64,000 nucleotides of DNA. Origin: an uncultured Planctomycetia bacterium. GTDB lineage: Bacteria; Omnitrophota; Gorgyraeia; Duberdicusellales; 4484-171. Positions 12,641 to 34,653 of the stretch are shown here, one piece after another. The DNA is taken from contig CAZWON010000002.1 of NCBI GenBank assembly GCA_964635565.1, positions 14,936 through 78,935 of the forward strand, written 5' to 3'. The notes under the pieces are model-generated. The model saw only the letters and a list, made by a program, of their open reading frames with translations. It was not told the DNA's origin and did no database searches. Position 1 is the first letter of the stretch. Each line of letters begins with the position of its first letter. Made by a program: the position numbers and the translations under genes.

Positions 12641-12690
12641 AAAAAGCCGAGCTACCAAATTAAGCTTCGGCAGCCCGGCTATCCTGCTTT
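12641..12690 (-). terminator. Rho-independent terminator-like hairpin on the minus strand, about 200 nt upstream of the giant ORF start.
   Basis: Minus-strand AGCCGGGCT-(18-nt loop)-AGCTCGGCT followed by T8. 9-bp stem with one G-U pair. Confidence 0.5.
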
Positions 12691-13315: not shown

Positions 13316-13756
13316 TTATTCTTTCCATTCCATTCTAATAAGTTTTCTTTTACCATTAGGATAATTAACTATTGTTAATAATAAAACTTTATTATTAAGA
13401 TAATCAGTAGCCACTACTGTTATACCTTTGTTAACAGAAAATATCCGCCAGTTGGTAAATTTATTCCATTTTCCTCCTCCCTGACGGAAACTAAAGGCAA
13501 AACTTTCTATAAATCTCTTTACATATTCCTCTTTTTGCTGCATAGTCCTCAGTCTGTTAACTGTTCCCCCTACATTTATTCCCACTGCTACAAAAGAAGT
13601 CCAATCAATCAATCGCCCCACAGAAAAATCTCCTTTAATTAATCCCTTTAAACAACGGCGAGCAAAATCCACATCATTTCTTATCCCCGTGCATCCACTT
13701 ATAATAAATACAAAAACAAAAAATAAAGTAAACATATTTTTGGGTTTAATCTTCAT
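13316..13756 (-). CDS. Small lipoprotein of unknown function (146 aa).
   Basis: MKIKPKNMFTLFFVFVFIISGC gives a signal peptide with a lipobox Cys. Last gene of the Tad-like cluster. Confidence 0.55.
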   Translation of the reverse strand: MKIKPKNMFTLFFVFVFIISGCTGIRNDVDFARRCLKGLIKGDFSVGRLIDWTSFVAVGINVGGTVNRLRTMQQKEEYVKRFIESFAFSFRQGGGKWNKFTNWRIFSVNKGITVVATDYLNNKVLLLTIVNYPNGKRKLIRMEWKE

Positions 13757-13811
13757 CTTTCTCCTCCTAAGTTTAAAAAAGTTAAAATACCTAATAATAT
13801 TATTGCCAAGT

Positions 13812-16415
13812 TTAATGATCAGACCTACGGACAGATTTAATTCCTACTTTATCGTAACTATAATACACATAACACTCCTTAGTAATCTCACCAGCAATCC
13901 GTGGATTCCATATACCTAAAATGCCCACCTTTTTATTGGTAGAGTCGGGGTCTTTGCGAGTAACTTTAATCCAGGTTCTCTCTCCATTGTCCTTATAATC
14001 CTTCATTATAAGACAAATTTTTTTAACCAAAAAACACCCACTTTCTTTTTTTTCCAGACGAGCAAGTTTAAAAGGCCCGACTTCTACAGTTATGGAATGA
14101 TTCTCTAAAGTCCCTCCTCGTTTATCCTGCCAGGAATAAGTTATACTGCCTCCCCCGTCTTCCGCTCTCTCCGTGGTCTCTATAACATGAATTTGGTTAT
14201 AAAATTCCTCTATCTCGGAAAGGAAATCACTTATTTCTTTCTGTCTGCTCTCAAGAGAATCCAATACAGGCCTAAACTCATCATCCCATCTAATATCAAT
14301 GGTAGCAAACTCATCATCAACACTATTTAATTTTTCTTCCATCTCATCTAATACTCCTAAAAATGCCTCTTCGCCCATAGAAGGTATCTGCAAATCAGGT
14401 GTAGAAAGCTGTTCAACTCCTTGTTTATCCCCTTCATAAGTATTATCTTCGCAGATAGTATTACAATTTCCTTCGTCATCACATTCCTCATGGCAGCACC
14501 TGCAGGTATATCTATAATGAAAGTTGTAAGAAATCGTACCTCTTCCTTCTCCTAAATTTCTCCTCTCGCAAGGAGAATGAATATTGCCCTTTAAGGAAAT
14601 CTTTAAACTCTCAATTTCTACCTCGCCAACTAAAGAACAATTATCTTGTGAGCACACATCAAAGAACTCTCCTTCTCTAATACGATCTTTAAGACTCCTT
14701 ACAAATTCTCTTACTATACCTATCTCATCTGTTAACTTATTTTTATCATCAGCATAAAGCTTACACACAGGATTAGGAAGAATTACCCCTGATACTTCTC
14801 GTGAATCTTGTGTCCAATTACAGGGGTAAATAGGCTCATCAGGAGGATTATAATTATTACAGGAGGGTTCATCTTTTATACTTTCTTTAACTGAGCAAGG
14901 TGTGATTATGTATTCCAACTGACAAGGAGTAAGATTATTGCGAATATCAATGGTTTCCTCTATCCATTCACCCATTGCAGAAACAATAGACTCTAAATCA
15001 TTATAAAAATCGTTCCCCCTGCCAGGATTATATAAATAATCTACCCAGTCATAATTTTTGTCTAAATCCCCGACGTTGTGTTTTAATATTCCCTCGGCAT
15101 AATCAATAAATTCCTCCAGATGGTAACGTGCTCCATCTACATCATCATAGCCGGAAGGCACAGGACAACTCTCGCAATCTTTCTTATACCACCCTACAAG
15201 AGATGCCTTGTCAGGTCCTGGCTCCCAGAAGCTAACCTCATAATTGCAATCTTCCAATGCCCGCCACAACTCTATAGGAGGAGCATCACAAGATACACAA
15301 TCACATTCCACCTCTTTTCTATCCATCTCTGAGAGAAATTCTTCAATATTCTGTTTAAAAGGCCTGAGAGAATTATTTACAAAATTATTTATAACATCTA
15401 CTCCTGAAATTAAACTTTCTTTTAAATCTTTTATGTGCTTATCCCACCATACTAAAAATGCAGGAACTTTGTCATCTGTCTTCCCATCACAATCTATATC
15501 AGTGGTATCGGTAACCTTATTAGGATCATCCACTGTTTTTGAAAGAACCTGAAGAAATACGCCTTCTCTAATACGCTCATAGTCAGGAAGGCCATTAAGT
15601 GCTTTGACAAAATTTTCCATACCCGCTGCAAGGCTCTTATCCATCATAAGGCCAGTATAAATACTTGCCCCCACAGCAAGAGAGCCGCCAATAATAGCAC
15701 CTGTTGTAGAAGCAAAAGCAGTAACAACAGAACCCTGCAGTAAGGTTCCTCCTTCTAACACCCATCCCGATATTGCCTTCCCTGCCTCAAAAACCATTAA
15801 TCCACCTGTAGAACTACCAGCAGCACCCCCTCCTACCTCAAATGTTGCTCCTCCTGCGCCTGCTACTGATTGTGTTCCTCCCAAGAGACTTGCCCCTCCA
15901 GCAATTGCTGCTCCAATCATCGCTCCTTGAATTGCCCCCATCGCCATTCCTTTAAGAGGGTTATTAGCAGTAAAAGATCCTCCTATTGCCCCTCCTATTG
16001 CCCCTCCTATTACTGCAGCAAGACCAGGGCCACCAATAACAAACCCTATTATTGCTCCAATAATAGCAAGAACTACTCCTAAAAGCCCCCCTTTCTTGCA
16101 TTTCTTTGTTTTGTTGCCTAACGATTCATACAACATATGACTTTTAGATGCCAACTGAGAACCTAAATAAAGACCTGCTGAATCTATAGCATTAGAAATT
16201 TGTGTTAACCTGTTTGTGACATTTCCAATATTTATCACCACAAGAGTAAAAATTAATACAAAAATAATCATTAAAATAAAAAGAGTGGCTATTTGACCTC
16301 TTTTATATATACTTTTTACAGTTTCAAATATATAATTATTTTTTTTCTTCTGGGTAGAAATTTTAAGTCTGGTTAAGTTCTTTAAAGAAATTATCTTGCC
16401 TAAACCAGAAAACAT
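13812..16415 (-). CDS. TadG-like pseudopilin / minor pilin (867 aa) with a Gly-zipper segment and a large Cys-rich acidic C-terminal domain. Putative pilus-associated adhesin.
   Basis: N-terminus QIATLFILMIIFVLIFTLVVINIGNVTNRL resembles the TadE/G N-terminal motif (PF13400-like). GGAIGGAIGG-type glycine zipper, then about 600 aa rich in Cys, Asp and Glu. Sits in a Tad gene neighbourhood. Confidence 0.5.
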   Translation of the reverse strand: MFSGLGKIISLKNLTRLKISTQKKKNNYIFETVKSIYKRGQIATLFILMIIFVLIFTLVVINIGNVTNRLTQISNAIDSAGLYLGSQLASKSHMLYESLGNKTKKCKKGGLLGVVLAIIGAIIGFVIGGPGLAAVIGGAIGGAIGGSFTANNPLKGMAMGAIQGAMIGAAIAGGASLLGGTQSVAGAGGATFEVGGGAAGSSTGGLMVFEAGKAISGWVLEGGTLLQGSVVTAFASTTGAIIGGSLAVGASIYTGLMMDKSLAAGMENFVKALNGLPDYERIREGVFLQVLSKTVDDPNKVTDTTDIDCDGKTDDKVPAFLVWWDKHIKDLKESLISGVDVINNFVNNSLRPFKQNIEEFLSEMDRKEVECDCVSCDAPPIELWRALEDCNYEVSFWEPGPDKASLVGWYKKDCESCPVPSGYDDVDGARYHLEEFIDYAEGILKHNVGDLDKNYDWVDYLYNPGRGNDFYNDLESIVSAMGEWIEETIDIRNNLTPCQLEYIITPCSVKESIKDEPSCNNYNPPDEPIYPCNWTQDSREVSGVILPNPVCKLYADDKNKLTDEIGIVREFVRSLKDRIREGEFFDVCSQDNCSLVGEVEIESLKISLKGNIHSPCERRNLGEGRGTISYNFHYRYTCRCCHEECDDEGNCNTICEDNTYEGDKQGVEQLSTPDLQIPSMGEEAFLGVLDEMEEKLNSVDDEFATIDIRWDDEFRPVLDSLESRQKEISDFLSEIEEFYNQIHVIETTERAEDGGGSITYSWQDKRGGTLENHSITVEVGPFKLARLEKKESGCFLVKKICLIMKDYKDNGERTWIKVTRKDPDSTNKKVGILGIWNPRIAGEITKECYVYYSYDKVGIKSVRRSDH

Positions 16416-16459
16416 TTTCTTCTCCTTAAATTTTACACCCCTTTATTCTTCTCATTTTA

Positions 16460-16714
16460 TTACTTAAAAACATCTAAATCAGGATACTCCGATTCATCAA
16501 CAAACACAGGCTTATCACTATGTTGGGTATCTTCTGATGCAGCATCGCGACGGGTATCATTATAATCTTTTTCTCTCTGAACCATCTGATTATTCATCCA
16601 CACAAATATATTGACTGCTCCTACCATTAGTATTACTACAACTGCTAAACTTACGGTAAGCTCTAATATAACCTGAGTTTTTTTAATAACTTGTCTGCCA
16701 CTCATTAGAATCAT
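16460..16714 (-). CDS. Small TadE-like pseudopilin (84 aa).
   Basis: RBS GGGAGGA before ATG (MILMSGRQVIKKTQVILELTVSLAVVVILMVGAV). Shares the KKxQ...E class-III-like prepeptide with the Flp array. The N-terminal part of the track ORF 16460..16936 overlaps the upstream gene and is rejected. Confidence 0.5.
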   Translation of the reverse strand: MILMSGRQVIKKTQVILELTVSLAVVVILMVGAVNIFVWMNNQMVQREKDYNDTRRDAASEDTQHSDKPVFVDESEYPDLDVFK

Positions 16715-17702
16715 TCCTCCCTTTAATGGTAGAAATGCTTTTAGAAGTATAACTACCTGATTCATCTCCATAAGGATGGTAAATAACCTCCCGGGTTGTA
16801 GTAAATGACCAATTAAAATCATCTTTTGAGATAATTTTTCCTTGCGGCTGTTGGTTAACTGTAAGGGTATCGTTTCTTTCTTTAACTTGAGCAATCTCGG
16901 GCTGGATTCCCATCGCTTTGGGCTTAATCTGCTCACCCCCTATAATACCGCCGAGATTAGCAAAAGCAAATAGCTCTTCCAGCTTATCACAATACCAGGG
17001 AGTATTTATAGATACCGCACACACTTCTTCACAGCTAAACTCGTAAGCACCTCCCTCTTCTCCGCTCCACCTGCCTTCTTCACACTGCTGGGCGCATACA
17101 TCCTTATCTGTAATCATTCTGCAAATTCTTACTGCTGAGCCGTAATCTATACTTTCTCCTGAATAGGGGTCTATTATGGTTACAACCCCTGAATCTTCAT
17201 CCCACTTAATATTTGAACCTCCATATATCTCTTTATATTTTTCTACTATCTTTTTTACTTCCTCATCCCCGCTACTACCCACATTTTCCTCTCTAATTGC
17301 AGCAAGATAAAATGTCTCTTTTCTACTATCATTTCCCTGAAACTCCATTGTTATTCTGGGTAGCTCTTCTTTGGTATCAGCAGTTTTATCTATACGATAA
17401 TTACGAACTACAATTGCACTACCGCTAAAACCTTCAGCGCTTCCCACCCCAAAAGGGTCGGAAGGGCTGGGAATATGCTTATCTCTTACAAGAAAATATG
17501 TTGCCTCGCGCATATCACGAGAGGCAGATGCCAAAGCTTTCCTAAAAGCATGCTGGCTTGTTCTCTGCTGAAAGTTATACTTGAGTCCGTAACTTACAAG
17601 AACACCTAAAATAAACAAAAAAACTCCTCCAAAAATGGCAGTTTCCACTAATGATTGTGCCTTTTTTCTGCTGGTATTATATTGCTCTATAATATTCATC
17701 AT
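16683..17702 (-). CDS. TadE/TadF-like pseudopilin (339 aa) with a Cys-rich C-terminal domain.
   Basis: N-terminus SRKKAQSLVETAIFGGVFLFILGVLV carries the same KKAQS motif as the pilins. The C-terminal region has many Cys (CAQQCEEGRW...SCEEVCAV...WYCDK). Confidence 0.5.
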   Translation of the reverse strand: MMNIIEQYNTSRKKAQSLVETAIFGGVFLFILGVLVSYGLKYNFQQRTSQHAFRKALASASRDMREATYFLVRDKHIPSPSDPFGVGSAEGFSGSAIVVRNYRIDKTADTKEELPRITMEFQGNDSRKETFYLAAIREENVGSSGDEEVKKIVEKYKEIYGGSNIKWDEDSGVVTIIDPYSGESIDYGSAVRICRMITDKDVCAQQCEEGRWSGEEGGAYEFSCEEVCAVSINTPWYCDKLEELFAFANLGGIIGGEQIKPKAMGIQPEIAQVKERNDTLTVNQQPQGKIISKDDFNWSFTTTREVIYHPYGDESGSYTSKSISTIKGRNDSNEWQTSY

Positions 17703-17707
17703 TCATA

Positions 17708-18559
17708 TTATATCCCAAATAACCCTCCCTCTTTAAACCGTATGAGAACAGGCCCTCCTATAATAATAATTACAACACCTAAAATAAGAATCAAAGGTAG
17801 AATAATAAGAATTGATGCTCTTATAGCTTGCTTTTCTCCTATTTGAATTCTCCTCTCCCGCGCATCCTCGGAAATAATGTCAAACACCTCGTGGATAGGT
17901 GTCCCCATCCGCTCTGCCTGAATTAATGTATTGGCAAAACTGCGTATTTCAGGAAGATTGATTCGGTTAACCAAGCTTAAAAGAGCCTCCTGCCTTGAGC
18001 GACCCATAATAATTTCATTTACAACAATCCGCAAATGATAAAGTAAGGGATTCATCTGTGTTTTTTCCAGTATCCACCGCAAACCGGAGAGGAAATCAAG
18101 ACCAGCCTCAATACATAACCCTAAAAGATCTATTGTCTCAGGAAGATGTTTTAAAATTTGAAATTTATATTTTTTAACCTTATCTATTAGCCAGATATCC
18201 GGTAAAACAAACCCTACTATACTAAATATAACAATAAGTGTAACATCCGTAGAGTTAGTAATTAAATAAAAACCAAAACCTCCTCCTATAGCAAATATTT
18301 CTTTTATAAACATAAAATCTTCAGGATTAAGGCGAGAATTAATAAATTGCAATTTACTGCGAAAAAAACCTTTAAGCCCCAGGATGCTTAATAAAAAAGT
18401 ATTTAAAGGATAAAATGGTAGGCTTAAAAAAACAATCGGCCTTTTTCTGGTATAATCTATATTTAATCTTTTTAATATAGAAACTTTTTCCTTTCCTGTA
18501 AAGGCTGTAAAAAATAAATACACTGCGGCGACAATAAAAACTATAATTATACCAACCAT
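17708..18559 (-). CDS. tadC: Tad pilus inner-membrane platform protein TadC-like (T2SSF/GspF family).
   Basis: T2SSF-domain-like sequence (GLDFLSGLRWILEKT...ARERRIQIGEKQAIRASILIILP) with several TM segments. Confidence 0.65.
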   Translation of the reverse strand: MVGIIIVFIVAAVYLFFTAFTGKEKVSILKRLNIDYTRKRPIVFLSLPFYPLNTFLLSILGLKGFFRSKLQFINSRLNPEDFMFIKEIFAIGGGFGFYLITNSTDVTLIVIFSIVGFVLPDIWLIDKVKKYKFQILKHLPETIDLLGLCIEAGLDFLSGLRWILEKTQMNPLLYHLRIVVNEIIMGRSRQEALLSLVNRINLPEIRSFANTLIQAERMGTPIHEVFDIISEDARERRIQIGEKQAIRASILIILPLILILGVVIIIIGGPVLIRFKEGGLFGI

Positions 18560-18569
18560 AGCCTCCCCC

Positions 18570-19439
18570 TTAATAATGCACGGTAGTAAAGATTTTGATT
18601 AAAAACAATGCTATCACTTGAAGGACTACCGCTGTTACCAAAAGCATTCTCCCCAAATCGCTCTGAAACATTATCTCAAAATGATGAGGATCCATTTTAT
18701 GCACCACTATAACAAATACAACTGGTAATATAGAGATAATCCCTGCCTGCATTCTCCCTTGAAAAGTCATAATCTTCATCTTATCATTTACTTTTTTTCT
18801 TTCCCGGATAGTCATAATGAGACGGGAAAATACTTTCACCAAGTTACCTCCTGTTTCTTTACCAATCACAATAGCTGTAGTCATAAGTTTTAGATATTCG
18901 GAATTAATCCGTTTGTTTAACATTTTTAAAGATTCCTCTAAAGATGCCCCTATTTTGTGTGCTCTTAATACCAGCTCAAACTCATCCTTTAAAGGAGGAA
19001 TACTGATGCTAACCATTGACTCAATAGCCTGAACAAAACTCAATCCTCCTTTGAGAGCATTGGAAATCTCAACTAAACCATCAATGAGCTGTTCATTAAA
19101 GCTCTCTATTCTTCTTTTTTTAAGTATTCTTAAGAATAAAGATGGAACAACAAAACCAATTGCAATTCCCATCACAGTAGTAAATACTGTCTTGGTCAGT
19201 ATATAGGCTATAATTCCTAGAACAAAAGGAAAAATTATTAAAAAAAATCTCAATTTAGAGGAAGGAGTGTAAAAAATATCTTCCAATTGAGAAGAAAATC
19301 TCTCAACTCTTTTATGGTGCAGATGGCTTATTTTTCTCAAATACTTATAAAAAGGTAAAGAGGGAAATGCCTGCGTAAACAGAAGTACAGCACCTCCTAC
19401 AAAAATGAGCGAGCTTGACAAAAGTAATCCTGGACTCAT
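18570..19439 (-). CDS. tadB: Tad pilus inner-membrane platform protein TadB-like (T2SSF/GspF family).
   Basis: LVEISNALKGGLSFVQAIESM...GKETGGNLVKVFSRL is typical of TadB/CpaG. Confidence 0.65.
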   Translation of the reverse strand: MSPGLLLSSSLIFVGGAVLLFTQAFPSLPFYKYLRKISHLHHKRVERFSSQLEDIFYTPSSKLRFFLIIFPFVLGIIAYILTKTVFTTVMGIAIGFVVPSLFLRILKKRRIESFNEQLIDGLVEISNALKGGLSFVQAIESMVSISIPPLKDEFELVLRAHKIGASLEESLKMLNKRINSEYLKLMTTAIVIGKETGGNLVKVFSRLIMTIRERKKVNDKMKIMTFQGRMQAGIISILPVVFVIVVHKMDPHHFEIMFQSDLGRMLLVTAVVLQVIALFLIKIFTTVHY

Positions 19440-19448
19440 TATTCCTCC

Positions 19449-19637
19449 TTAAGGCTGGTATTGACGACCATAACCAAACACATCAACTGAGGCTTTCCAC
19501 TTCCCGCAAATTGCTTTTTTCAAATAACCCTGCACCATAATTAGTGCTAACACTATAGTTAGGATAAATACCCCATACTCTATAAGAGAAACTGCTCTTT
19601 TATTTTGTAATTGTCTGGTCTCTAATTTGTGTAACAT
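19449..19637 (-). CDS. flp: Flp-family pilin paralog (62 aa).
   Basis: NKRAVSLIEYGVFILTIVLALIMV has a hydrophobic core after the conserved EY. Member of the tandem array. Confidence 0.6.
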   Translation of the reverse strand: MLHKLETRQLQNKRAVSLIEYGVFILTIVLALIMVQGYLKKAICGKWKASVDVFGYGRQYQP

Positions 19638-19917
19638 CTTCCTCTATATTCTCGACAGTTACTAACCCTAAATAATTCTCTCCATTTATGGTGACATTAT
19701 CTATATAACTATTCGTTGTACTATAAGAAGTTACGCTATAAGTAGAAATTGAATTTATCCCTTCTGTATCATACAACATCCCTAAGGAGTCTGATTGTGT
19801 TTTAACTCTTCCTGAATAAGCTCTTTTTAAATAAATACTCATCAGAACCAAACTGGCAGATATCACAGCAACCATCACACTATACTCCAATAATGTCTGG
19901 CTTCTTTTAATCTTCAT
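19600..19917 (-). CDS. flp: Flp-like pilin paralog with C-terminal extension (105 aa).
   Basis: MKIKRSQTLLEYSVMVAVISASLVLM. Confidence 0.55.
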   Translation of the reverse strand: MKIKRSQTLLEYSVMVAVISASLVLMSIYLKRAYSGRVKTQSDSLGMLYDTEGINSISTYSVTSYSTTNSYIDNVTINGENYLGLVTVENIEEDVTQIRDQTITK

Positions 19918-20239
19918 GCTCTATTTCTCCTTGCCAGGATGAAGAAGTTGCTTCTATAGAGACCTTGCTCTCTGAATCTATCATATGGGCGGTTGCGTTT
20001 TCCTCTATGGTTTTATTTTCATTGCTCTCAGTTGTTGTCTGGGAACCTAAGCTGAAACTTTTTTTAGGATTGAACTCTATAGAATACTGTTTTCCCTCGC
20101 TCATTTGATCAGCCTGATATTTCACTACAGACTGAATACTTCTCTTTATATAAGTCTGCATACTAATTACTGCTGCTGTAAGAACACTTACTAAAATTAC
20201 ATATTCACCAATAGACTGTGTTTTTAGCTTTACTCCCAT
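19907..20239 (-). CDS. flp: Flp-like pilin paralog with C-terminal extension (110 aa).
   Basis: MGVKLKTQSIGEYVILVSVLTAAVISM. Confidence 0.55.
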   Translation of the reverse strand: MGVKLKTQSIGEYVILVSVLTAAVISMQTYIKRSIQSVVKYQADQMSEGKQYSIEFNPKKSFSLGSQTTTESNENKTIEENATAHMIDSESKVSIEATSSSWQGEIEHED

Positions 20240-20706
20240 AAATTTTCTTGTTTTAAACTCACTCCTGAAAAACTGTCTGTATAGCTTGTTTTTGTATACT
20301 CGTCTTCCAATAGCTCATCTTTAACTTCTCCATTAAACTGAAAAGTCCTTCTTGTATGAGAAAAAGAATGGGTTGATTTTACAAGATTACTATGTGAAGG
20401 AGAAAACTGAATTCCTAAAGCATTAGCATCTTTCATTAATCTTCCTTGATTGGCTGTTTTTATATAGACAAAAGAAATCACCATAGAAACCCCAATTAAA
20501 GCAATCAATACCCCATATTCAATTATAGCCATAGCTTTTCCAGATTCTTTTCTTTTTTTTGTATAGCCAAAAGAAGATATGTGTGTGCTGTAATTATTAA
20601 TAATTTTTCTAATACCCTTGTTCAATTTTAATCTCCCTCTCTCTGAATTTCTTAGAAATATCTTCTCAGAACCTAAAATAGCTTTTAGTCTAGAAAGCAT
20701 TACCAC
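20230..20706 (-). CDS. flp: Flp-like pilin paralog with C-terminal extension. Start uncertain: possibly a TTG after RBS AGGGAG, giving about 133 aa.
   Basis: KKRKESGKAMAIIEYGVLIALIGVSMVISF motif. The track ORF starts further upstream. Confidence 0.45.
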   Translation of the reverse strand: MVMLSRLKAILGSEKIFLRNSERGRLKLNKGIRKIINNYSTHISSFGYTKKRKESGKAMAIIEYGVLIALIGVSMVISFVYIKTANQGRLMKDANALGIQFSPSHSNLVKSTHSFSHTRRTFQFNGEVKDELLEDEYTKTSYTDSFSGVSLKQENLWE

Positions 20707-20709
20707 CTT

Positions 20710-21033
20710 CTAATTCCACCCATCATCCTGAGTTGAATCTATTCCTGTTATCCTCTGGCCCCTCGTAGTTGTATTAGTAGAAAATGTATGTTGTATATCC
20801 GAAGCGCTATGACTTTCCTTACTTTCCTGATAAGTTTCTGTCTCTATATTCTCAAAGATATAATATGGGGTATACTGGCGAGGCACCCCTGCTATCTCTG
20901 TTACAAAATCACTTGCTCCTTTTAATCTTGCCTGATAACCCCTTTTAATAAAAGTCTGCATAGCGATAAAAGCACTTATCACTACTCCTACTAAAAGGGC
21001 ATATTCAGTTATGCTCTGTGCTTTCTTATTCAT
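20710..21033 (-). CDS. flp: Flp-like pilin paralog with C-terminal extension (107 aa).
   Basis: RBS GGAG, then ATG MNKKAQSITEYALLVGVVISAFIAM. The track used an upstream TTG. Confidence 0.55.
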   Translation of the reverse strand: MNKKAQSITEYALLVGVVISAFIAMQTFIKRGYQARLKGASDFVTEIAGVPRQYTPYYIFENIETETYQESKESHSASDIQHTFSTNTTTRGQRITGIDSTQDDGWN

Positions 21034-21035
21034 TA

Positions 21036-21197
21036 TCAATGGTCTCCAATAATATGTGATATTTTATCTCCCAAGGCATTATAGTAAGTATCAAGCCCAT
21101 TTTTAATAGAGCCCTTAAATCCTATTATCAAAGCCAAAATAATAGCAGTAACCATCAAAAGATACTCTACTGTAGCCTGACAACTTTTACTACACAT
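21036..21197 (-). CDS. flp: Flp pilin (53 aa), missing from the ORF track because it is under 60 aa.
   Basis: RBS GGAG. MCSKSCQATVEYLLMVTAIILALIIGFKGSIKNGLDTYYNALGDKISHIIGDH read by hand from the reverse complement. Confidence 0.55.
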   Translation of the reverse strand: MCSKSCQATVEYLLMVTAIILALIIGFKGSIKNGLDTYYNALGDKISHIIGDH

Positions 21198-21199
21198 AC

Positions 21200-21574
21200 T
21201 TACTCACTCCAAATATCAGATTCATTACCTTTAAGGTTGTAATTGATTCCCCAGTCTTTCTTACTGACCTGCCCTCCCTTATAATTGAGATCTATCTCGC
21301 TCTCTAAGCCTAATCCGCTATCAACCAATTGTGATTCTGACCAGTATCCACTACCAATAGCATCACTTGACCCTGTGGTTTCATTTGAACTGGCCTGATC
21401 CCAGCTATTGCTCGTATAGTTTGCTCCAAAATGTTCAGTGCTTATGCTATCTGCGGAACTCTTAAATCTACCACTAATAGCTTGTTTCACGTATCTCTGT
21501 GCTATTATTACAGCAGCAAGAAAGACAGCAATTAACACTGCATATTCTGTCATACTTTGTGCCTTTTTTCTCAT
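21200..21574 (-). CDS. flp: Flp-like pilin paralog with C-terminal extension (124 aa).
   Basis: RBS GGAGGTGAG, then ATG MRKKAQSMTEYAVLIAVFLAAVIIA. The track ORF is extended 5' to 21703. Confidence 0.55.
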   Translation of the reverse strand: MRKKAQSMTEYAVLIAVFLAAVIIAQRYVKQAISGRFKSSADSISTEHFGANYTSNSWDQASSNETTGSSDAIGSGYWSESQLVDSGLGLESEIDLNYKGGQVSKKDWGINYNLKGNESDIWSE

Positions 21575-21608
21575 TCTCTCACCTCCGCTCTGTATTTCTT
21601 CTATTACA

Positions 21609-22007
21609 TTACCTCTCTTCTTCCCATAAGTTATCAGCGGTATCACGAAGCGCATGCTGTTTAGAAAATCCCCCACTTCCTCTTCCACTAATCTCACTGC
21701 CACTGATATTAGCTACATAATCATTATTTACGTTGATATCGGTTTTACTGGCCTGTTGAGTTTGATATTGTGATTCTAAATAGTAAGGTTCGTACTGCTT
21801 TATGCTCTTAAACTCTGCTGTTACGTCTGTCATATTTTCAGCTGTCATTGTAAAAGACGGCTGAGTCAAAGCATTTACTCCTGCAGCTGTTCGAGCCTGT
21901 AAACCACGTTTGATATATACCTGCATTGCCACTGCCGCAGAAATAACCACACCCAGAATAATTGCATATTCCGCTGTTGATTGAGCTTTTTTTATCCTTA
22001 TTAACAT
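21609..22007 (-). CDS. flp: Flp-like pilin paralog with C-terminal extension (132 aa).
   Basis: MLIRIKKAQSTAEYAIILGVVISAAVAM. Confidence 0.55.
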   Translation of the reverse strand: MLIRIKKAQSTAEYAIILGVVISAAVAMQVYIKRGLQARTAAGVNALTQPSFTMTAENMTDVTAEFKSIKQYEPYYLESQYQTQQASKTDINVNNDYVANISGSEISGRGSGGFSKQHALRDTADNLWEEER

Positions 22008-22032
22008 ATTACCCCCCTTTTTTTATGGAATA

Positions 22033-22230
22033 CTACTCCTCACTTAACCCCATTTTACTGCTTATCTCAGTAGAAGCTTTGTCAATAATCTGTCCTGCAG
22101 TATCTGCCATCTTCTCTGCTTTAGGCTTAATAACACTCTTGGCAGCATAAATAAATGCTAATATCAATGCGGCAGCAAGTAAAGTATATTCCACAGTAGA
22201 TTGGCCGTTTTTCTTTAACTTCATAAACAT
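22033..22230 (-). CDS. flp: Flp pilin (65 aa).
   Basis: RBS AAGGAGG with a 5-nt spacer, then ATG MFMKLKKNGQSTVEYTLLAAALILAFIYA. G at -5 relative to the EY Glu matches the G/XXXXEY TadV site. Confidence 0.6.
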   Translation of the reverse strand: MFMKLKKNGQSTVEYTLLAAALILAFIYAAKSVIKPKAEKMADTAGQIIDKASTEISSKMGLSEE

Positions 22231-22249
22231 AAAACTACCTCCTTTTATT

Positions 22250-22414
22250 TTAAGATGCTTCACTTTCTGCTTCTATATTAATCTGATCCTCAATAAGCTT
22301 AAGATTTGCCTGCGTCGCTCTCTGGACATAAACACTCATTGCCACAATAGCTGCAGCTACAACACTTACTAACATTATATACTCAACAATACTCTGAGAA
22401 GCTCTTTTCACCAT
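22250..22414 (-). CDS. flp: Flp pilin (54 aa), missing from the ORF track.
   Basis: RBS GGGGG. MVKRASQSIVEYIMLVSVVAAAIVAMSVYVQRATQANLKLIEDQINIEAESEAS. Confidence 0.6.
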   Translation of the reverse strand: MVKRASQSIVEYIMLVSVVAAAIVAMSVYVQRATQANLKLIEDQINIEAESEAS

Positions 22415-22415
22415 C

Positions 22416-22595
22416 CTACTTTACCCCCATCTCTTCCATCTTTCTAACAAAGAAATCTTCGCTTTCTTCTTTTACTCTCTGGATAGCATTATTAAAACCC
22501 AAAACCGTTAAAATAATAATCAAAGCAAACGCTAAGAAATATTCAACTACTGCTTGAGCTTTTCTTTTCCTTTGAATATTTTTATCTGACCTCAT
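22416..22595 (-). CDS. flp: Flp pilin (59 aa), first gene of the array, missing from the ORF track.
   Basis: MRSDKNIQRKRKAQAVVEYFLAFALIIILTVLGFNNAIQRVKEESEDFFVRKMEEMGVK. An AT-rich 770-bp promoter region lies upstream. Confidence 0.6.
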   Translation of the reverse strand: MRSDKNIQRKRKAQAVVEYFLAFALIIILTVLGFNNAIQRVKEESEDFFVRKMEEMGVK

Positions 22596-22913
22596 TCTAT
22601 TCTAATTACCCCTCTATTTTAGAAACAAAAACGATTTACTCCCTCTTTCTGTTATTCATCCACACTGTTATTACAAATAAATACTCGCTTTTTAAGATTA
22701 TTCTTTTATTGCCTCCCGCTGACCACTTCAATATAACATATTAAATAATAGAAAAACAAGGGAAAGGAACATTTTAATGAAAGCGTTTTCTTATCTGAGA
22801 AAATATAATTAGTTAGTATGATTAATTATTCTAATAGACAATAAAAAGATAACAAAAAGGGGATAATTTCGGATATATTAAAGCTAACAGGCTCAACTCT
22901 TCTCTATTCTATT

Positions 22914-22945
22914 TTTAGGCCTATTTTTAGGCCTAAATATAGGCT
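22914..22945. promoter_or_regulatory. Candidate operator upstream of the pilin array. Palindromic AGGCCT hexamers as direct repeats at about a 12-bp spacing (TTAGGCCTATTTTTAGGCCTAAATATAGGCT).
   Basis: Seen directly in the intergenic region between the cpaF-like gene and the first flp. Confidence 0.3.
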
Positions 22946-23370
22946 TTGTAGAAATACTCATACGCTTTTGGATAATTTTTCTTCTCTAAATATACTCTTC
23001 TTAGTATCCTTTACTCTTATAGAAAAATAAAAATGCTATCCACAGAAGTAAATTTAACTTCGCTCTTATTATGAATCCTTTAAGAAACAACATTTACCTG
23101 CTAAAACATAAATTTTCTATTAGAAGTAACGGGTTTGATGTCTTGGCTATAGGAATTAATACTCTTTTATCAGAAAGAAAAAACTCAAAAGGGGAATAAC
23201 AAGAGCTTCTTTATAAAATCTTGCCAAAGCAAATCTATTTTTAATTAGAGAACTTCATTTGAAACATTATTGCTGGCGAAATAGTTAATCCCGCAAGCAT
23301 TATAATAAAAAGAATAAAGTCAACTTTCTTCAACATATTCTACTTATTATTTATATCTTTTCTATCTTTT

Positions 23371-25539
23371 TTAGGTATGAGGAGAAAAAATATCAGAAGA
23401 GAGTTTAATGTCTCGCGAGACAATCTCATCATAGAATGTGGGAATATAACCGGTTGGAGAAAAATCGCCAACAATCTCACCGCCAGGAGCAACACCTTTT
23501 TGTTTAAAAACAAATATATCTTTTAAGTTGGGTCTGCCATTGGGTGTTAATCCTGCGAGTTCAGTAATCTGAATAACTTTTCGTGAACCATCGGATAAAC
23601 GAGCGGTGTGGACAATTAAATCTATGGCAGAGGCAATTGTTTCTTCAATTGCTCTTAAAGGTAACTCTATGCCACTCATAAGAACCATATTATCTAATCG
23701 GATAATAACTTCATGGGTAGAATTAGCATGGATAGTTGATAATGAACCATCGTGCCCTGTATTCATTGCCTGAAGCATATCTAAAACTTCTTTACCCCGA
23801 CACTCCCCAACAATTATTCTATCCGGGCGCATACGTAATGCATTTCTGAATAACTCCCTTATAGTAACTTCTCCTTTACCTTCTATATTAGGAGACCGTG
23901 CCTCTAATCGAATCCAATGGGTTTGAGACAACTTAAGTTCTGCGGTATCCTCAATAGTTATAATGCGCTCGTTAACAGGTATATAGGTAGAGAGAATATT
24001 TAAAAGGGTTGTTTTGCCAGAACCAGTTCCTCCTGAGATTAAAATATTCTTCCGGGCCATAACTACTGCTTCTAAAAATTCCCCCATTTGTGGTGTAAGA
24101 GACTTAAATCTGTTAATCAATTCTTCCATTCCTAATCTTTTGTAAGGAAATTTTCGAATAGTAAGGGTAGGTCCACTTAAAGATAAAGGAGGGATTATGG
24201 CATTCACCCTCGAACCATCAGGAAGACGTGCATCTACATAAGGAGAAAATTCATCAATCCGTCTTCCCAAAGGAGCAAGGATTCTATCAATAATTAACTT
24301 CACTTGTTCATTTGAGATAAACCGTTTGCTGGTAAGTTCGATTTTACCATTTTTCTCAATAAAGACTTGGTCCATATTGTTTACCATTATTTCAGTGATA
24401 TTGGGATCGCGTATCAAATCCTCCAAAGGACCCAACCCTAAAGCTTCATCAACAATCTCTTGAACCAATTTTCTTCTTATCTCCAAAGAAGAAATGAAGC
24501 TTTGAGTTTCTTCTATTAAAATATTATTTACGACTCTTTCTGCTGTTTCTCTTAATTCCTTAGACTTATCTGTATCTAACATTAAAACTTCTACAGGCAT
24601 CCTCTTCAGGTCCATTCGCTCAATTAATTTCCGGTGAACTTTTTCTTTTAAGGTTATAATTGGGTCTTCCTCTCTTGTCTTAACTTGAAGAGGCTCCACT
24701 AATCCCAGATTAACTAATAAACTACTTCCTCCATCAATTACCTCTGCGGGTCTCTTTCTAAGCTTAAGTTCAGACAGCTCTTTTGTAGGAAGATAAATAT
24801 CCTCTCTTTCTAAAAGCTCATCTGCTAATTTCTTTATAGCTAAAGTTACACTACTACGGGAATTATCTAAAACTACAGGAATACCTTTATTTAAAGCAAC
24901 TCCTACAGATTTTCCTTCCGAAGGAATCTGAGAAAAAATCTCTACAGGAAAAACCATCTTTACTTCTCCTACATCCACTCCTCCTCTACTCTCTGCCCTA
25001 TTAAGAATAATTTTTAACATTTTTAAAGGAAAATATAAACTCTGTAAAGTATCCAATATCCACTCAGTATGATAAACGGAAAGGATATCAGGAGTTACTA
25101 TAAGAAATATCAAATTAGAATTATTAAAAATTTTCACCAAATTATCGCTTAGACTTCTACCGCCGTCTATAATAATAAAGTCATAATCCAATTTTTGAAA
25201 TAAGGTTAAGAATTCTTCAATATGTTGGGGTTTAATATGATGAATTAATCTTAAGGAAGATGCTGCTGACAAAAAATCAAGAGAAGAATTTAAAGAAGTA
25301 AAGAAACTTTTTACATCTTTCTTGCCTCCCATAATTTCTTTAGTGTGAGCAATTAAATCTATCAGGGTCCTTTGAGGCTTTATATTAGCCATTTTCACCA
25401 TATCTAAGGGGGCATTCAGGTCTAACGATATAAGTAGAATTTTTTTCTTCTGTAAAGAAAGGCTAACCGCAACATTAAGAGTAACCATGGTTGTACCCAC
25501 GCCACCTTTTGTGCTAAAAAATACAACTGTCTTTGTCAT
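23371..25539 (-). CDS. Fused TadZ/CpaE-like (MinD/ParA-family, degenerate Walker A) and TadA/CpaF secretion ATPase (722 aa).
   Basis: N-terminus VVFFSTKGGVGTTMVTLNVAVSL is ParA/MinD-like. The C-terminal half has a T2SSE-type P-loop ILISGGTGSGKTTLLN plus Asp/His boxes. Confidence 0.7.
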   Translation of the reverse strand: MTKTVVFFSTKGGVGTTMVTLNVAVSLSLQKKKILLISLDLNAPLDMVKMANIKPQRTLIDLIAHTKEIMGGKKDVKSFFTSLNSSLDFLSAASSLRLIHHIKPQHIEEFLTLFQKLDYDFIIIDGGRSLSDNLVKIFNNSNLIFLIVTPDILSVYHTEWILDTLQSLYFPLKMLKIILNRAESRGGVDVGEVKMVFPVEIFSQIPSEGKSVGVALNKGIPVVLDNSRSSVTLAIKKLADELLEREDIYLPTKELSELKLRKRPAEVIDGGSSLLVNLGLVEPLQVKTREEDPIITLKEKVHRKLIERMDLKRMPVEVLMLDTDKSKELRETAERVVNNILIEETQSFISSLEIRRKLVQEIVDEALGLGPLEDLIRDPNITEIMVNNMDQVFIEKNGKIELTSKRFISNEQVKLIIDRILAPLGRRIDEFSPYVDARLPDGSRVNAIIPPLSLSGPTLTIRKFPYKRLGMEELINRFKSLTPQMGEFLEAVVMARKNILISGGTGSGKTTLLNILSTYIPVNERIITIEDTAELKLSQTHWIRLEARSPNIEGKGEVTIRELFRNALRMRPDRIIVGECRGKEVLDMLQAMNTGHDGSLSTIHANSTHEVIIRLDNMVLMSGIELPLRAIEETIASAIDLIVHTARLSDGSRKVIQITELAGLTPNGRPNLKDIFVFKQKGVAPGGEIVGDFSPTGYIPTFYDEIVSRDIKLSSDIFSPHT

Positions 25540-25543
25540 AAAT

Positions 25544-27160
25544 TCATCTTTCTGCTCTATACACTATGGGGACTTCAATATTTACCTCTTCCAAACGCAT
25601 CTGGGGAGAAAAAGGAGGGTAAGATAATTTTCTTACTACTTTTAATGCTTCTTCGTCAAATATCTTATAGCCTGAAGAACGAACAATACTTACATCTTTA
25701 AGTTCTCCTGCGGATGATAGTCTTAAAGATAAAACCAAATTCCCTTCCCACCCTGTATGTCGTAACACGCGAGGATAAGAAATATTACTTAAAATTCTTC
25801 TCTGAACCTGATAAGCATACTCTTTAAACTCATCCGGAATATTAGTCTGGCCGTACAATTTAAATATCCCCCTTTTTGTGGAAAATTCTTCCTGCAAAAA
25901 ATCATCTTCTTTGTCCGCTTTGCTTTCCATATTAATAATATGAGGAGTTAAAGTAATAAAAAGTTCAGTATTTCCCCTTTGACCTGCACCCCCTCCTATA
26001 CTTATGGATCTGTGTCTGAAAAAAGCTCCTAATACAGGAAGGTCTGCTAACCAGGGAAATCTTTTTAAATCCTCATCTGTCTTTTCCTTTATAAGTCCTC
26101 CTATAGAAAGAGTTGCTTTATCTCTTAAAGAAACCTCTGTAGAGATTATCCTCTTTGTTAAAGGATATGCTTTAGCTGTAGGAGCATCAGGATCCCCTAT
26201 AGTTTCTACCGGTTGTAATTCGCTTACTTCTATATCCAATTTAATATCCACCTTATCTCTATTGACTACTTTGGGTTCAATATTTAACTTTATTCCATAT
26301 TCTTTATATTCAATATTAGTACCCTCTCCTTCAGAAGAAACTTCTGTAGCAAAAATGGGAACTTCTCCTCCTATAAGAAGGCTAGCGGTTTTACCGCTTC
26401 TACACACCAATCGGGGACGAGACAAAATTCTTGCCTCGCCTTTCTGAATTAATAAATCTAATGTGAAGCTAAAAGCAGAGCGTGTCCAGTCAGAAACGTG
26501 AAGTAATGCTGAAAGACCTGTTACTGCCTGGACAGTTGGCCCGCTTGACTCTGTAAACTTAATAGCACTGGGCATATCAAACCCTAAGGTTCTAACGGCA
26601 TCTTTGCTTAATTCTAACACCTGCACTTCAATCTCTACACTTGATTCTTCTTCCCGCACATTAATAAAATCTAAAACTTTATCTTTAAGTTTCCCTAATG
26701 CTGCCATAAGTCTATTTTTCTCTTCTTCTGTTTTTACTTCTCCTTTTAGCAAAACCTTATTCTCGCTGTCTAAGGCTTTGGTATAAATATTTAAAAACCC
26801 TATATTTTTTAAAAGATTATCAATTCTTTTCTTAATCAATGCCATATTCTCCTTATATACTTTAACTTCTATACTGTGGTGCCCAAATTTATCCCACCAG
26901 TTAAAAGAAGTTTCTCCTTCGGTTTTACCTACAATAGTTATATCTTTTTCTGTAACATTAACCACATCTATTACCTCAGGATTACCAATAGCAATACGCT
27001 GGGGGCTGTTTACAGAAATTACTTTCTGTTCATTTACATATAAAACAAGAGTTGTTTCATCGCTACTAAATAAATCCTGGAAATTTTGAGAAAAAAGAAA
27101 TGAACTGTTTCCTAAAAATATTACACAAAAAAGAATAATCTTTAAATATGTTTTTTTCAT
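25544..27160 (-). CDS. cpaC: CpaC/RcpA-type secretin with a C-terminal TonB_C-like domain (538 aa).
   Basis: Signal peptide. QRIAIGNPEVIDVV is a pilus-formation N-terminal motif. Secretin core LLIQKGEARILSRPRLV...FPWLADLPVLGAFF. C-terminus YPRVLRHTGWEGNLVLSLRLSSAGELKDVSIVRSSGYKIFDEEALKVVRKLSYPPF matches the TonB C-terminal fold. Confidence 0.65.
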   Translation of the reverse strand: MKKTYLKIILFCVIFLGNSSFLFSQNFQDLFSSDETTLVLYVNEQKVISVNSPQRIAIGNPEVIDVVNVTEKDITIVGKTEGETSFNWWDKFGHHSIEVKVYKENMALIKKRIDNLLKNIGFLNIYTKALDSENKVLLKGEVKTEEEKNRLMAALGKLKDKVLDFINVREEESSVEIEVQVLELSKDAVRTLGFDMPSAIKFTESSGPTVQAVTGLSALLHVSDWTRSAFSFTLDLLIQKGEARILSRPRLVCRSGKTASLLIGGEVPIFATEVSSEGEGTNIEYKEYGIKLNIEPKVVNRDKVDIKLDIEVSELQPVETIGDPDAPTAKAYPLTKRIISTEVSLRDKATLSIGGLIKEKTDEDLKRFPWLADLPVLGAFFRHRSISIGGGAGQRGNTELFITLTPHIINMESKADKEDDFLQEEFSTKRGIFKLYGQTNIPDEFKEYAYQVQRRILSNISYPRVLRHTGWEGNLVLSLRLSSAGELKDVSIVRSSGYKIFDEEALKVVRKLSYPPFSPQMRLEEVNIEVPIVYRAER

Positions 27161-28104
27161 TCAGAAATAGATATATATTCTTTATTTAGTCCCCGGTAAA
27201 TCTCTATCTTTTTAGGCTCAAGCTTTTTAGGCTCAAGGGGTTTTACCTCTACCTGGGGCAAAGTAGAATTTATATACTGAAAAAGAGTATCCCATCCTGC
27301 AGGAGGAAGAGGTTTTACTTTTGCATCGGCAGGAGAACGTAAAACCAGACGAATTCTTCCCTGTTCAACAACAAAAGACAATAAACTTGCCTCTTGAGGA
27401 GAAAGTGCCAAGGTAATCAAAGGATTTTTTTCTTCTTTTGTACTTCTTTGTTTTAACCGCAAACTCCATAAACCAGTCTTTCCTTTTTCTTTTTTTTCTA
27501 ATAACTTTTCTCCTACAGCTAAAACTAAAACTTTCTGAAAAAGGGGTATAGTAGTATTAGTAGTCTTAGTCCCTTCAGGAGTTTTAACAGGTAAAGGTAA
27601 AAGAGCAATAACATCAACATAGTCTCCTGGTTTAATCATTCCTACCAAACCACTTATATTATCCACACTAACCGTAATTGCTCTTTTACCTACAGGTGTT
27701 GCCATTGCCAAAGATTCCCCCCTTGCCATCGTGGGAGACATCAGTTTACTTAAAGTAATCTGTTCTCCCTTGTTTATAGCAACAACTGTTTTCATACCAA
27801 TTATTCTGTCTGCGGAAGTTACAGATTTAGGCTGGATATATTCATTAGGAATTACTTTCGTCTCAATCATACTCTGTACAATTTCTGCTCCGGCGGGTAT
27901 ATCTTTTTTAGCGACAATCACTGAGTTTAAATTTTTATATCTTTCCATAAATGTCTTCTTTAAATTATTATACATTTTATTCCTTTCTTCTTTTATATAA
28001 GTATTTATAAGAATAATTGCGCCTATACTTAAGATGATCCCTCCGCTTAAACTTAACATCTTTTTAGATATTCTTGGCCCCATTAAACCTCGCCTTTGTT
28101 TCAA
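27157..28104 (-). CDS. cpaB: CpaB/RcpC-like Flp pilus assembly protein (SAF domain).
   Basis: N-terminal TM segment, VIVAKKDIPAGAEIVQSMIE SAF-like, GMIKPGDYVDVIAL. Confidence 0.6.
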   Translation of the reverse strand: MKQRRGLMGPRISKKMLSLSGGIILSIGAIILINTYIKEERNKMYNNLKKTFMERYKNLNSVIVAKKDIPAGAEIVQSMIETKVIPNEYIQPKSVTSADRIIGMKTVVAINKGEQITLSKLMSPTMARGESLAMATPVGKRAITVSVDNISGLVGMIKPGDYVDVIALLPLPVKTPEGTKTTNTTIPLFQKVLVLAVGEKLLEKKEKGKTGLWSLRLKQRSTKEEKNPLITLALSPQEASLLSFVVEQGRIRLVLRSPADAKVKPLPPAGWDTLFQYINSTLPQVEVKPLEPKKLEPKKIEIYRGLNKEYISISE

Positions 28105-28125
28105 AAAGGAATATGTTAAGATATA

Positions 28126-29040
28126 TTACTGAATCTTATCTTCCATTATCTCTATTTTAGCATTTCTTGATAAATTACCCACAAGGTCATCTATTCTTTT
28201 CTGCTGTTTTATAAATGTCAAACCTCTCTTTATATCATCCCACATCTCGGAGAGAGTTTTTTGTTTTCCTCCTTTTTTACCCTCTACAGTAATAATATAA
28301 TACCCATCTGGCCCTTTAAATACACTGCTTATCCCCCCTACACTCAAAGCATCGGAAAAAGCTATCTCATCAAATTCTTTAAATTTTGTGCCTGGCTTAA
28401 TGAAGCCTAAATCCCCTCCTTTCTCAGCAGTAGGTGCCTTAGAGTACTGGCGGGCTAAAGAAGCAAAGTCCTCACCTTGCAATAACCTGATTAATAAATC
28501 TTTTGCTTGAGATTCACTAATAACTACTATTTCTCTTATCTTTCTTTCTTCTGGCTCTTTTAAATTTTCTTTAGCAACATTGTAATAATCCTTAATTTCT
28601 TGAGGAGTAACGTTTACTTTATCTGTTTCCTCCTTAACTAACTGGTAGACAAGCAGTTGCTGTTTAGTATTCTCCAATGCTTTTATCACCTCAGGATTCC
28701 TATCCAAACCTCTATCCAAGGCTTCTTGATAAAGAAGAATGCGCTTTATAACTTCATTTTTTAAATAATCTAATTTTTTTTCTCGTGTAGTTATTTTAAG
28801 CTCAGGTTTATCCTCAGGGACTGCATTATTATAACGGTCTATTTCCTCCTCTAAATCTTCTAAAGTAATGGGATAACCATTTACCTTAGCAATAACTGTT
28901 CCTGTAACAGGAAGTTTGGAAGTAAAGGGCTCTTTTTTGGACTCTGAGGCAGGTTTTTTACTGAATTTTAATTTATCACAGCTCACAAGAAAAAAACTAA
29001 TACAGACAATTAATCCTATTATAAAACTCCTCCCTTTCAT
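28126..29040 (-). CDS. Parvulin-type peptidyl-prolyl isomerase lipoprotein (PrsA/SurA-like).
   Basis: Lipobox LVSC. PPIC motif region QYSKAPTAEKGGDLGFIKPG. Confidence 0.6.
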   Translation of the reverse strand: MKGRSFIIGLIVCISFFLVSCDKLKFSKKPASESKKEPFTSKLPVTGTVIAKVNGYPITLEDLEEEIDRYNNAVPEDKPELKITTREKKLDYLKNEVIKRILLYQEALDRGLDRNPEVIKALENTKQQLLVYQLVKEETDKVNVTPQEIKDYYNVAKENLKEPEERKIREIVVISESQAKDLLIRLLQGEDFASLARQYSKAPTAEKGGDLGFIKPGTKFKEFDEIAFSDALSVGGISSVFKGPDGYYIITVEGKKGGKQKTLSEMWDDIKRGLTFIKQQKRIDDLVGNLSRNAKIEIMEDKIQ

Positions 29041-34642: not shown

Positions 34643-34653
34643 ATTGCACAAAT

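Follow-up and report, generated by a model that had tools for sequence, protein, structure and literature searches.

A probable Tad pilus locus of known Omnitrophota type next to a giant gene in an uncultured bacterium

We analyzed a 64,000-nucleotide stretch of DNA (the window) from an uncultured Planctomycetia bacterium placed in the Omnitrophota (Gorgyraeia; Duberdicusellales; 4484-171) by the GTDB, corresponding to positions 14,936 to 78,935 of contig CAZWON010000002.1 in assembly GCA_964635565.1. Between positions 13316 and 29040, its minus strand carried a cluster of Tad-like pilus genes, followed directly by the 5′ end of a giant open reading frame (ORF). We consider it likely that this locus encodes an Omnitrophota Tad (type IVc) pilus machine organized in two transcription units, followed by a giant gene under separate control. 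The locus type is already known, and the window provides another instance of a published Omnitrophota module of Tad genes and giant genes.

Gene content and organization of the locus

The window had a low G+C content (~34%) and the majority of its genes lay on the minus strand. Protein families were assigned with Pfam and NCBIfam profiles and their curated cutoffs. Together with the ORFs, these assignments bore out the gene order, strand and coordinates that an earlier reading of the DNA (the sequence-only reading) had given for the cluster. An assembly operon was separated by a non-coding gap from an operon of pilin, platform and pseudopilin genes, as follows (in leader motifs, a slash marks the cleavage site):

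28126..29040, minus: lipoprotein PPIC-type peptidyl-prolyl isomerase (PPIase), first gene of the assembly operon (Rotamase_3 59.8 bits, Rotamase_2 56.1 bits)
27157..28104, minus: CpaB/RcpC periplasmic alignment protein (TIGR03177 140.5 bits, cutoff 71; Pfam SAF and RcpC)
25544..27160, minus: RcpA/CpaC-type secretin (T2SS-T3SS_pil_N 45.8 bits, Secretin 125.8 bits)
23371..25539, minus: TadZ/CpaE-like ParA/MinD ATPase fused to a TadA/CpaF ATPase, 722 aa (Pfam and NCBIfam)
22596..23370, no strand: non-coding gap of 775 bp between the two operons, with no minus-strand ORF of at least 45 aa
19449..22595, minus: 11 Flp-like pilin genes (N-terminal [KR]x[AGSTC]/QxxxEY and a hydrophobic helix)
18570..19439, minus: TadB/TadC-type inner-membrane platform protein, 289 aa (single T2SSF domain, PF00482 57.7 bits)
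17708..18559, minus: second TadB/TadC-type platform protein, 283 aa (single T2SSF domain, PF00482 55.2 bits)
16683..17702, minus: pseudopilin, 339 aa (RKKA/QSLVET, Glu at +5, hydrophobic helix; TadE/TadF-like by its N-terminus only)
16460..16705, minus: pseudopilin, 81 aa (KKT/QVILEL, Glu at +5, hydrophobic helix; a called gene on the source contig)
13812..16415, minus: TadG-related protein, 867 aa (TadG-type N-terminus, PF13400 22.0 bits, cutoff 22.3)
13316..13756, minus: lipoprotein, 146 aa, last gene of the cluster (lipobox IISGC)

Promoter-like hexamers between positions 12400 and 30000 numbered 70, compared with 61.8 +/- 6.4 in shuffled sequences; there was thus no excess, and we claim no promoter.

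Core components are of Tad type

The core parts are all of Tad type and not of type II secretion system (T2SS) type. The locus combines a TadA-type ATPase, split TadB and TadC, a TadZ-like ATPase and RcpC with an RcpA-type secretin and short E5-Y6 pilins. The split TadB/TadC platform and the TadZ-like ATPase are considered hallmarks of Tad systems (PMC6668835). We rejected a T2SS as the identity of the locus: the GspD equivalog model scored 118.5 bits against a cutoff of 351 and GspE 51.9 against 630, the platform was split into one-domain proteins, and GspC, GspL and GspM had no matches among the scanned cluster proteins.

In the fused ATPase, residues 3-250 were ParA/MinD-like (AAA_31 48.5 and CbiA 42.3 bits at residues 3-206); the Walker A motif (KGGVGTT) was atypical and lacked the canonical Lys, and a receiver-like N-terminal domain was absent. 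Residues 330-660 were of T2SSE/TadA type (T2SSE, PF00437, 213.3 bits at residues 367-647, cutoff 24.9), and the TadA match (334 bits) exceeded that to FlaI (196 bits). Full-length TadZ/CpaE-TadA/CpaF fusions were widespread, occurring in Chloroflexota, Actinomycetota, Acidobacteriota, Bdellovibrionota, Bacillota and others. The PPIase at the head of the operon had weak SurA_N matches in addition to its lipobox, and its position was kept in three related loci (L001, L084 and L085; the comparison set is described below).

The secretin carried a C-terminal TonB_C domain at about residues 459-535 (64.8 bits; TIGR01352 53.9 bits, cutoff 27.1), which the sequence-only reading had overlooked. This secretin-TonB_C fusion was common to all of the best 120 secretin relatives. 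The NCBI label of these Omnitrophica/Omnitrophota relatives is 'TonB family protein', whereas the JGI label for relatives is CpaC; the former masks the secretin, so that such systems are missed by keyword searches. In P. aeruginosa, secretin assembly requires the four C-terminal residues of RcpA, to which the TadD pilotin binds (PMC10499894). Unlike RcpA with that tail, the secretin of the window ended in TonB_C. Since a folded domain replaces the RcpA-type tail and no TadD is present, we infer that TonB_C might substitute for pilotin-dependent anchoring.

Orthologs of the 339-aa pseudopilin, which had no Pfam or NCBIfam match, were found in L087 (63% identity), L089 and L090, the same loci that held orthologs of the 81-aa pseudopilin. 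The TadG-related protein combined a Gly-rich membrane segment with a Cys-rich C-terminal part and had 69 relatives, many of which passed PF13400; those named by NCBI mostly carried Tad-domain or TadG-related labels and all came from Omnitrophica/Omnitrophota. Its AlphaFold2 (AF2) model (pLDDT 75) had no neighbor in the PDB (best E 0.023, TM below 0.1). The 146-aa lipoprotein matched no Pfam or NCBIfam family, and its homologues, with the conserved motifs IDW...F...G.DVG...WR, directly followed the TadG-like gene in L087, L089, L090, L091 and L092.

Compared with canonical Tad loci (A. actinomycetemcomitans tad, Caulobacter cpa and P. aeruginosa tad-rcp), the locus shares TadA/CpaF, TadZ/CpaE, split TadB/TadC, an RcpA/CpaC secretin with pil_N, RcpC/CpaB, short E5-Y6 pilins and putative TadE/F/G-type pseudopilins. 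It differs from them in the fusion of TadA to a TadZ without the N-terminal receiver-like domain, and in having 11 pilin genes instead of one to three. In addition, the -1 residue of the pilin leaders is mostly Ala with Lys or Arg at -2, a PPIase gene comes first and a giant gene lies downstream, and TadD, RcpB and a linked TadV are lacking.

The locus recurs across the Omnitrophota

The closest relatives of the ATPase fusion, secretin, pilins and TadG-like protein were encoded by Candidatus Omnitrophota metagenome-assembled genomes. The gene set and its order recurred in 10 other Omnitrophota loci, which formed our comparison set (L001, L002, L084, L085/L086 and L087-L092, with L088 from GCA_028714715.1; protein identities about 30-85%). 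Comparative genomics had been proposed as a check on the sequence-only reading; it upheld the coupling to a giant gene and removed the novelty of the architecture. The premise that studied relatives would lack an identical locus was largely overturned, as one is found in Velamenicoccus archaeovorus LiM, whose complete Tad locus is expressed in co-culture and whose genome also has giant ORFs (PMC10066038). Seymour et al. 2023 detected Tad complexes with TXSScan across the Omnitrophota phylum (PMC10066038). West-Roberts et al. 2023 described a conserved, phylum-wide secretion locus upstream of Omnitrophota giant genes, called type II secretion-like, that comprises gspD, gspE, gspF, rcpC, a Rotamase_2 PPIase and many small class-III-signal genes (bioRxiv 10.1101/2023.11.21.568195). 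All of these parts were present in the window, with the same components, the same position directly upstream of the giant gene and the same phylum, and the synteny was common to L085 and L087-L092; nothing essential differs. A word search of these papers found no mention of the TonB_C secretin, the absent peptidase, riboswitches or the neighboring FIST-HK-GGDEF genes.

The window differs from its Omnitrophota relatives in lacking DUF192 (PF02643), which was searched for in the window and not found, and a pilin-side riboswitch aptamer. In relatives, the interval corresponding to the 775-bp gap held DUF192, an unknown gene of 293-588 aa and an aptamer for cyclic di-GMP (c-di-GMP), with an IS200-type transposase in some loci. 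DUF192 occurred there in 7 of the 8 relatives in which the interval was visible, directly after the TadZ-TadA fusion gene in 6 (L001 12168-12518; L002 10645-10986; L084 13970-14308; L085 13882-14238; L088 3731-4087; L089 2626-2967; L091 4024-4374).

Eleven pilins with archaeal-style leaders

Chance does not account for the pilin array: when all six frames were scanned for N-termini combining a basic leader, a small residue, xxxxE and a hydrophobic helix, these occurred only at 16678-22559 on the minus strand. Five of the 11 pilins were short and Flp-sized (53-65 aa), and six were long (about 105-158 aa) with C-terminal extensions. The xxxxEY motif and the helix were present in all 11, and Gly stood at -1 in only one. 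Ten had a collinear one-to-one ortholog in L087 at 65-85% identity, whereas the remaining pilin, w10, had none among the called genes of L087. Paralogous pilins seemed far more divergent, the best match of w10 being 38%, to the w02 ortholog. By these comparisons the eleven pilins are an old, fixed and non-redundant set. Across distant loci, conservation was highest for the 54-aa pilin at 22250-22414 (61-64%), our candidate for the major pilin.

A search for pilin relatives found 412, of which the best 120 had no Pfam domain and those named by NCBI were all from Omnitrophica/Omnitrophota. Among the best 120 of the 412, the long-pilin family had an invariant signature (QSTAEYA...MQxYxKRG...QYEPYY), Ala (84/120) or Gly (36/120) at -1, Lys or Arg at -2 in 110/120, and a median leader of 8 residues; the word-indexed search used to collect them biases the surroundings of STAEY towards uniformity. 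In sequence these leaders, of the form [KR][KR][AG]/QSTAEY with a preference for Ala at -1, resemble archaeal class III signals. Like archaeal Epd-like or other class III signal-peptide pili, the pilins have short basic leaders, a [KR][GA]/Q context and Glu at +5, and their weak Pfam matches fall to Class_IIIsignal, under its cutoff. Unlike those archaeal pili, the locus has a secretin, RcpC and a bacterial TadA-type ATPase. Tad systems are thought to derive from the archaeal Epd-like lineage (PMC6668835). An AF2 model of a long pilin (pLDDT 65.5, moderate) had a helix at residues 11-48 and a beta domain, and no meaningful match in the PDB.

A conserved giant gene downstream

2..12505, minus: 5′ part of a giant ORF, at least 4,167 codons (stop-free frame from 12523 to base 2; ATG at about 12505)

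The giant ORF ran off the left end of the window. Its product starts with a transmembrane segment, followed by Peptidase_C39 at residues 174-259 (25.1 bits, cutoff 22), and no other Pfam domain was found among the 4,167 residues inside the window. The physical coupling of this ORF to the Tad-like locus, pointed out in the sequence-only reading, is real: a giant gene came directly after the Tad-like gene set in L087 (>3,369 codons), L088 (12,939), L089 (9,754), L090 (17,015) and L092 (17,532), and in L091 the gene set was followed by a 1,917-aa C39 protein. A 2026 preprint likewise reports secretion or pilus flanks beside 13 of 14 giant genes.

This invariant synteny also bears on another reading, in which the locus does not build a surface pilus but a T2SS-like pseudopilus piston that exports or deploys the giant protein or partner hydrolases, with the 11 pilins as a fixed pseudopilin set. 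In L088 the giant gene lies only 53 bp past TadC and shares the upstream aptamer; an old, fixed and non-redundant group of pilins is what minor pilin or pseudopilin sets look like; and 'type II secretion-like' is the term chosen by West-Roberts et al. (10.1101/2023.11.21.568195). We nevertheless regard a piston as unlikely. Besides the GspC, GspL, GspM and GspD results given above, the ATPase was TadA/VirB11-like without the GspE N-domains, the platform was split as in Tad systems and five pilins were Flp-sized. According to the same preprint (10.1101/2023.11.21.568195), Omnitrophota giant proteins have many transmembrane segments and SecA-like domains, which fit membrane insertion better than passage through a secretin.

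Riboswitches and a putative c-di-GMP signaling system

12666-12837, minus: c-di-GMP-I riboswitch aptamer (RF01051, clan CL00126; 52.3 bits, gathering score 35)
12680..12645, minus: intrinsic terminator overlapping the aptamer (15-bp hairpin followed by T8; its 5′ arm is the 3′ strand of the aptamer)
32026..35583, plus: divergent trio of a FIST sensor, a histidine kinase and a REC-GGDEF protein (Pfam matches)

The aptamer lay 160 nt upstream of the giant ORF and had a 95-nt insertion in a variable hairpin. Since the ligand-free minimum-energy fold was the terminator form (z = -9.2), the riboswitch is predicted to be an ON switch that acts by transcription antitermination. The terminator overlapped the 3′ strand of the aptamer in 7 of 7 aptamers examined (the window, L085, L087, L088, L089, L090 and L092), and the first hairpin showed compensatory changes across these seven sequences. 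Six of them lay in relatives, before the giant gene (L087, L089, L090 and L092) or before the pilin array (L085 and L088). A covariance model built from the seven detected five further aptamers outside the building set (43-79 bits), all upstream of pilin arrays (L087, L089, L090, L091 and L092). In most relatives, the pilin-platform operon and the giant gene were thus each preceded by an aptamer of their own. The aptamers of the relatives lay at these positions:

L087: 13424-13583 and 3455-3634
L089: 15000-15097 and 5429-5559
L090: 14797-14924 and 5391-5533
L092: 9069-9174 and 1-109
L085: 16845-16976
L088: 5958-6062
L091: 5341-5489

In the 775-bp gap of the window, neither Rfam in E-value mode nor our covariance model with filters off detected a second aptamer. 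Like c-di-GMP-I (GEMM-I) riboswitches of pilus and adhesin genes, the aptamer of the window has an Rfam-passing core, a terminator platform and surface or adhesion genes downstream. It is unlike other GEMM-I riboswitches in its 95-nt insertion, in the size of the regulated giant ORF (>12 kb) and in the pairing of aptamers seen in most Omnitrophota relatives. In the paper library searched, nothing joined a c-di-GMP riboswitch with Omnitrophota. The FIST-kinase-REC-GGDEF trio is the likely source of the c-di-GMP signal, and the same trio was found beside the PPIase operon in L084 (3714-7447) and L085 (3902-7565; L085/L086).

A prepilin peptidase is not linked to the locus

The statement of the sequence-only reading that the locus has no linked prepilin peptidase, TadD or RcpB held in every search made. 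The GxGDxK motif of A24 peptidases gave no membrane-protein match in the six frames of the 64-kb window, tblastn of the window with 10 A24 proteins from related loci (four confirmed as PF01478) gave a best E of 0.1, and a profile HMM from 28 A24 sequences gave a best E above 1 in the window, compared with 5e-24 and 4e-15 for controls left out of the seed. With these positive controls working, a peptidase hidden in the window was ruled out. None was present in the adjoining 10 kb to the right either, which is available from the source contig (ENA ERZ27227320 k141_12957). Pfam and NCBIfam scans of the cluster proteins found no tetratricopeptide repeat (TPR)/TadD-like protein and no RcpB-like match.

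Within about 10 kb, all 11 Omnitrophota loci were devoid of A24 genes. Linkage was more frequent in other phyla, where loci of CpaE-CpaF relatives with a full 10 kb upstream had one nearby in 28 of 48 cases. Of those 28 genes, 27 were upstream on the same strand, at a median distance of 3.2 kb. In the other 20 loci, among them one Bdellovibrio and two Acidithiobacillus genomes, the 10 kb on hand contained none. Under the Tad model of MacSyFinder TFF/TXSScan, tadV can stand apart as a 'loner', and tadD, rcpB and rcpC count as accessory (PMC6668835). The sequence-only reading had called the architecture non-canonical on account of these absences; its Tad-like character and the lack of linked peptidase, TadD and RcpB stand, while the absences make it non-canonical only weakly, because the Tad model requires neither tadD and rcpB nor a linked tadV, and 20 of 48 other loci also lack a linked A24 gene. 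The missing adjacent peptidase gene is typical of Omnitrophota and not a sign of a new machine.

For cleavage, the pilins most likely rely on an A24 aspartyl peptidase whose gene lies elsewhere in the genome. Maturation by another protease, or use of the pilins uncleaved, would account for both the phylum-wide absence of a linked tadV and the Ala-rich -1 position (0/11 versus 28/48 loci; Ala in 84/120 family members), and K02278 (cpaA/tadV) was not seen among the rows listed of the KEGG table of Seymour et al. The +5 Glu and the [KR][AG]/Q site exactly match A24 recognition, and Ala at -1 is tolerated by archaeal PibD/FlaK. Unlinked peptidase genes are also common, and the listed rows of the same table place pilD (K02654) in some Omnitrophota genomes, one of them also with cpaF. 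Maturation without a classical A24 peptidase therefore seems very unlikely to us.

Weighing the Tad reading

Several observations weigh against the reading of the locus as a Tad pilus machine followed by a separately gated giant gene. The best NCBIfam match of the fused ATPase, to TIGR03819 (TadA family), scored 334.5 bits, under the cutoff of 373. No pilin reached the Pfam cutoffs (Flp_Fap 13.5 versus 32.2 bits, Class_IIIsignal 16.0 versus 23.7) or passed any NCBIfam model, and Ala, Ser, Thr or Cys at -1 deviates from the canonical G/xxxxEY. No peptidase was found, which makes processing of the pilins an assumption. On the regulatory side, the window has no pilin-side aptamer, unlike most relatives, and co-regulation of pilus and giant gene is for that reason not established for this genome. 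Several of the relatives' aptamers best match the GGC variant model, so that c-di-GMP is a putative ligand there, and the cyclase motif at all three trio loci is GGDDF instead of GG[DE]EF, which makes cyclase activity putative.

That the locus is a decaying, non-functional remnant is highly improbable: the window lacks the peptidase and three elements that relatives have, DUF192, the pilin-side aptamer and the unknown gene of 293-588 aa, but the cluster ORFs are all intact, every gene from the pilin array to the lipoprotein except pilin w10 has a collinear L087 ortholog at 61-85% identity, and identical protein sequences were found on several independent contigs.

Proposed mechanism

In the Tad reading, the first unit (PPIase, CpaB/RcpC, secretin-TonB_C and TadZ-TadA fusion) would build the envelope-spanning scaffold and the motor, and the second (11 pilins, TadB, TadC, two pseudopilins, TadG-like protein and lipoprotein) would provide the platform and the fiber subunits. 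The prepilins, with their short basic leaders and small -1 residue, would be cleaved by an A24 aspartyl peptidase encoded elsewhere, and the processed pilins polymerized through the secretin. The giant gene directly downstream would encode a membrane-anchored surface protein and would be turned on by c-di-GMP through the antiterminating riboswitch, the signal probably being made by the FIST, kinase and REC-GGDEF system. Together, pilus and giant protein could then serve an ultra-small, host-dependent bacterium as a regulated module for attachment or attack, and a role in adhesion or predation is what we infer for them.

A more far-reaching version is conceivable, though we hold it to be rather doubtful: the locus may be a phylum-specific Tad derivative, with a TonB_C secretin replacing the pilotin-binding tail, about 10 fixed pilins with Ala at -1 and Lys at -2, no dedicated tadV and paired c-di-GMP riboswitches gating it jointly with the giant surface protein, that makes one prey- or host-attack organelle and not a generic adhesion pilus.

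Flanking genes

29187-29263, minus: tRNA-Glu gene (CUC), 86 nt upstream of the PPIase gene

Three distant loci (the window, L084 7570-7644 and L085 7691-7765) each had a tRNA gene upstream of the PPIase gene; in the two relatives, an 80-85-aa ORF separated them. In the window, the tRNA was closely preceded by a strong promoter-like site, TTGACA-16-TAGAAT. The right end of the window (61488-63983, minus) was occupied by a V/A-type ATPase operon (subunits I, c, A, B and D) that continued into L082 1-10008. The adjoining 10 kb beyond the right end of the window held V-ATPase and pyrimidine genes and a glycosyltransferase; at its other side, the source contig ended within the giant ORF at window base 2973.

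Implications for the Omnitrophota

Omnitrophota are widespread, uncultured and ultra-small bacteria thought to be predators or parasites, and foremost among their candidate means of attack stand the Tad locus and the giant gene. The window adds nothing new to the identity of this system. The comparison does make testable that TonB_C stands in place of the pilotin-binding tail of the secretin, and that pilins with archaeal-style leaders occur without a linked peptidase at any of the 11 loci. It also makes testable a regulatory link, in that c-di-GMP riboswitches and a conserved neighboring two-component system with a diguanylate cyclase appear to gate the expression of pilin and giant genes.

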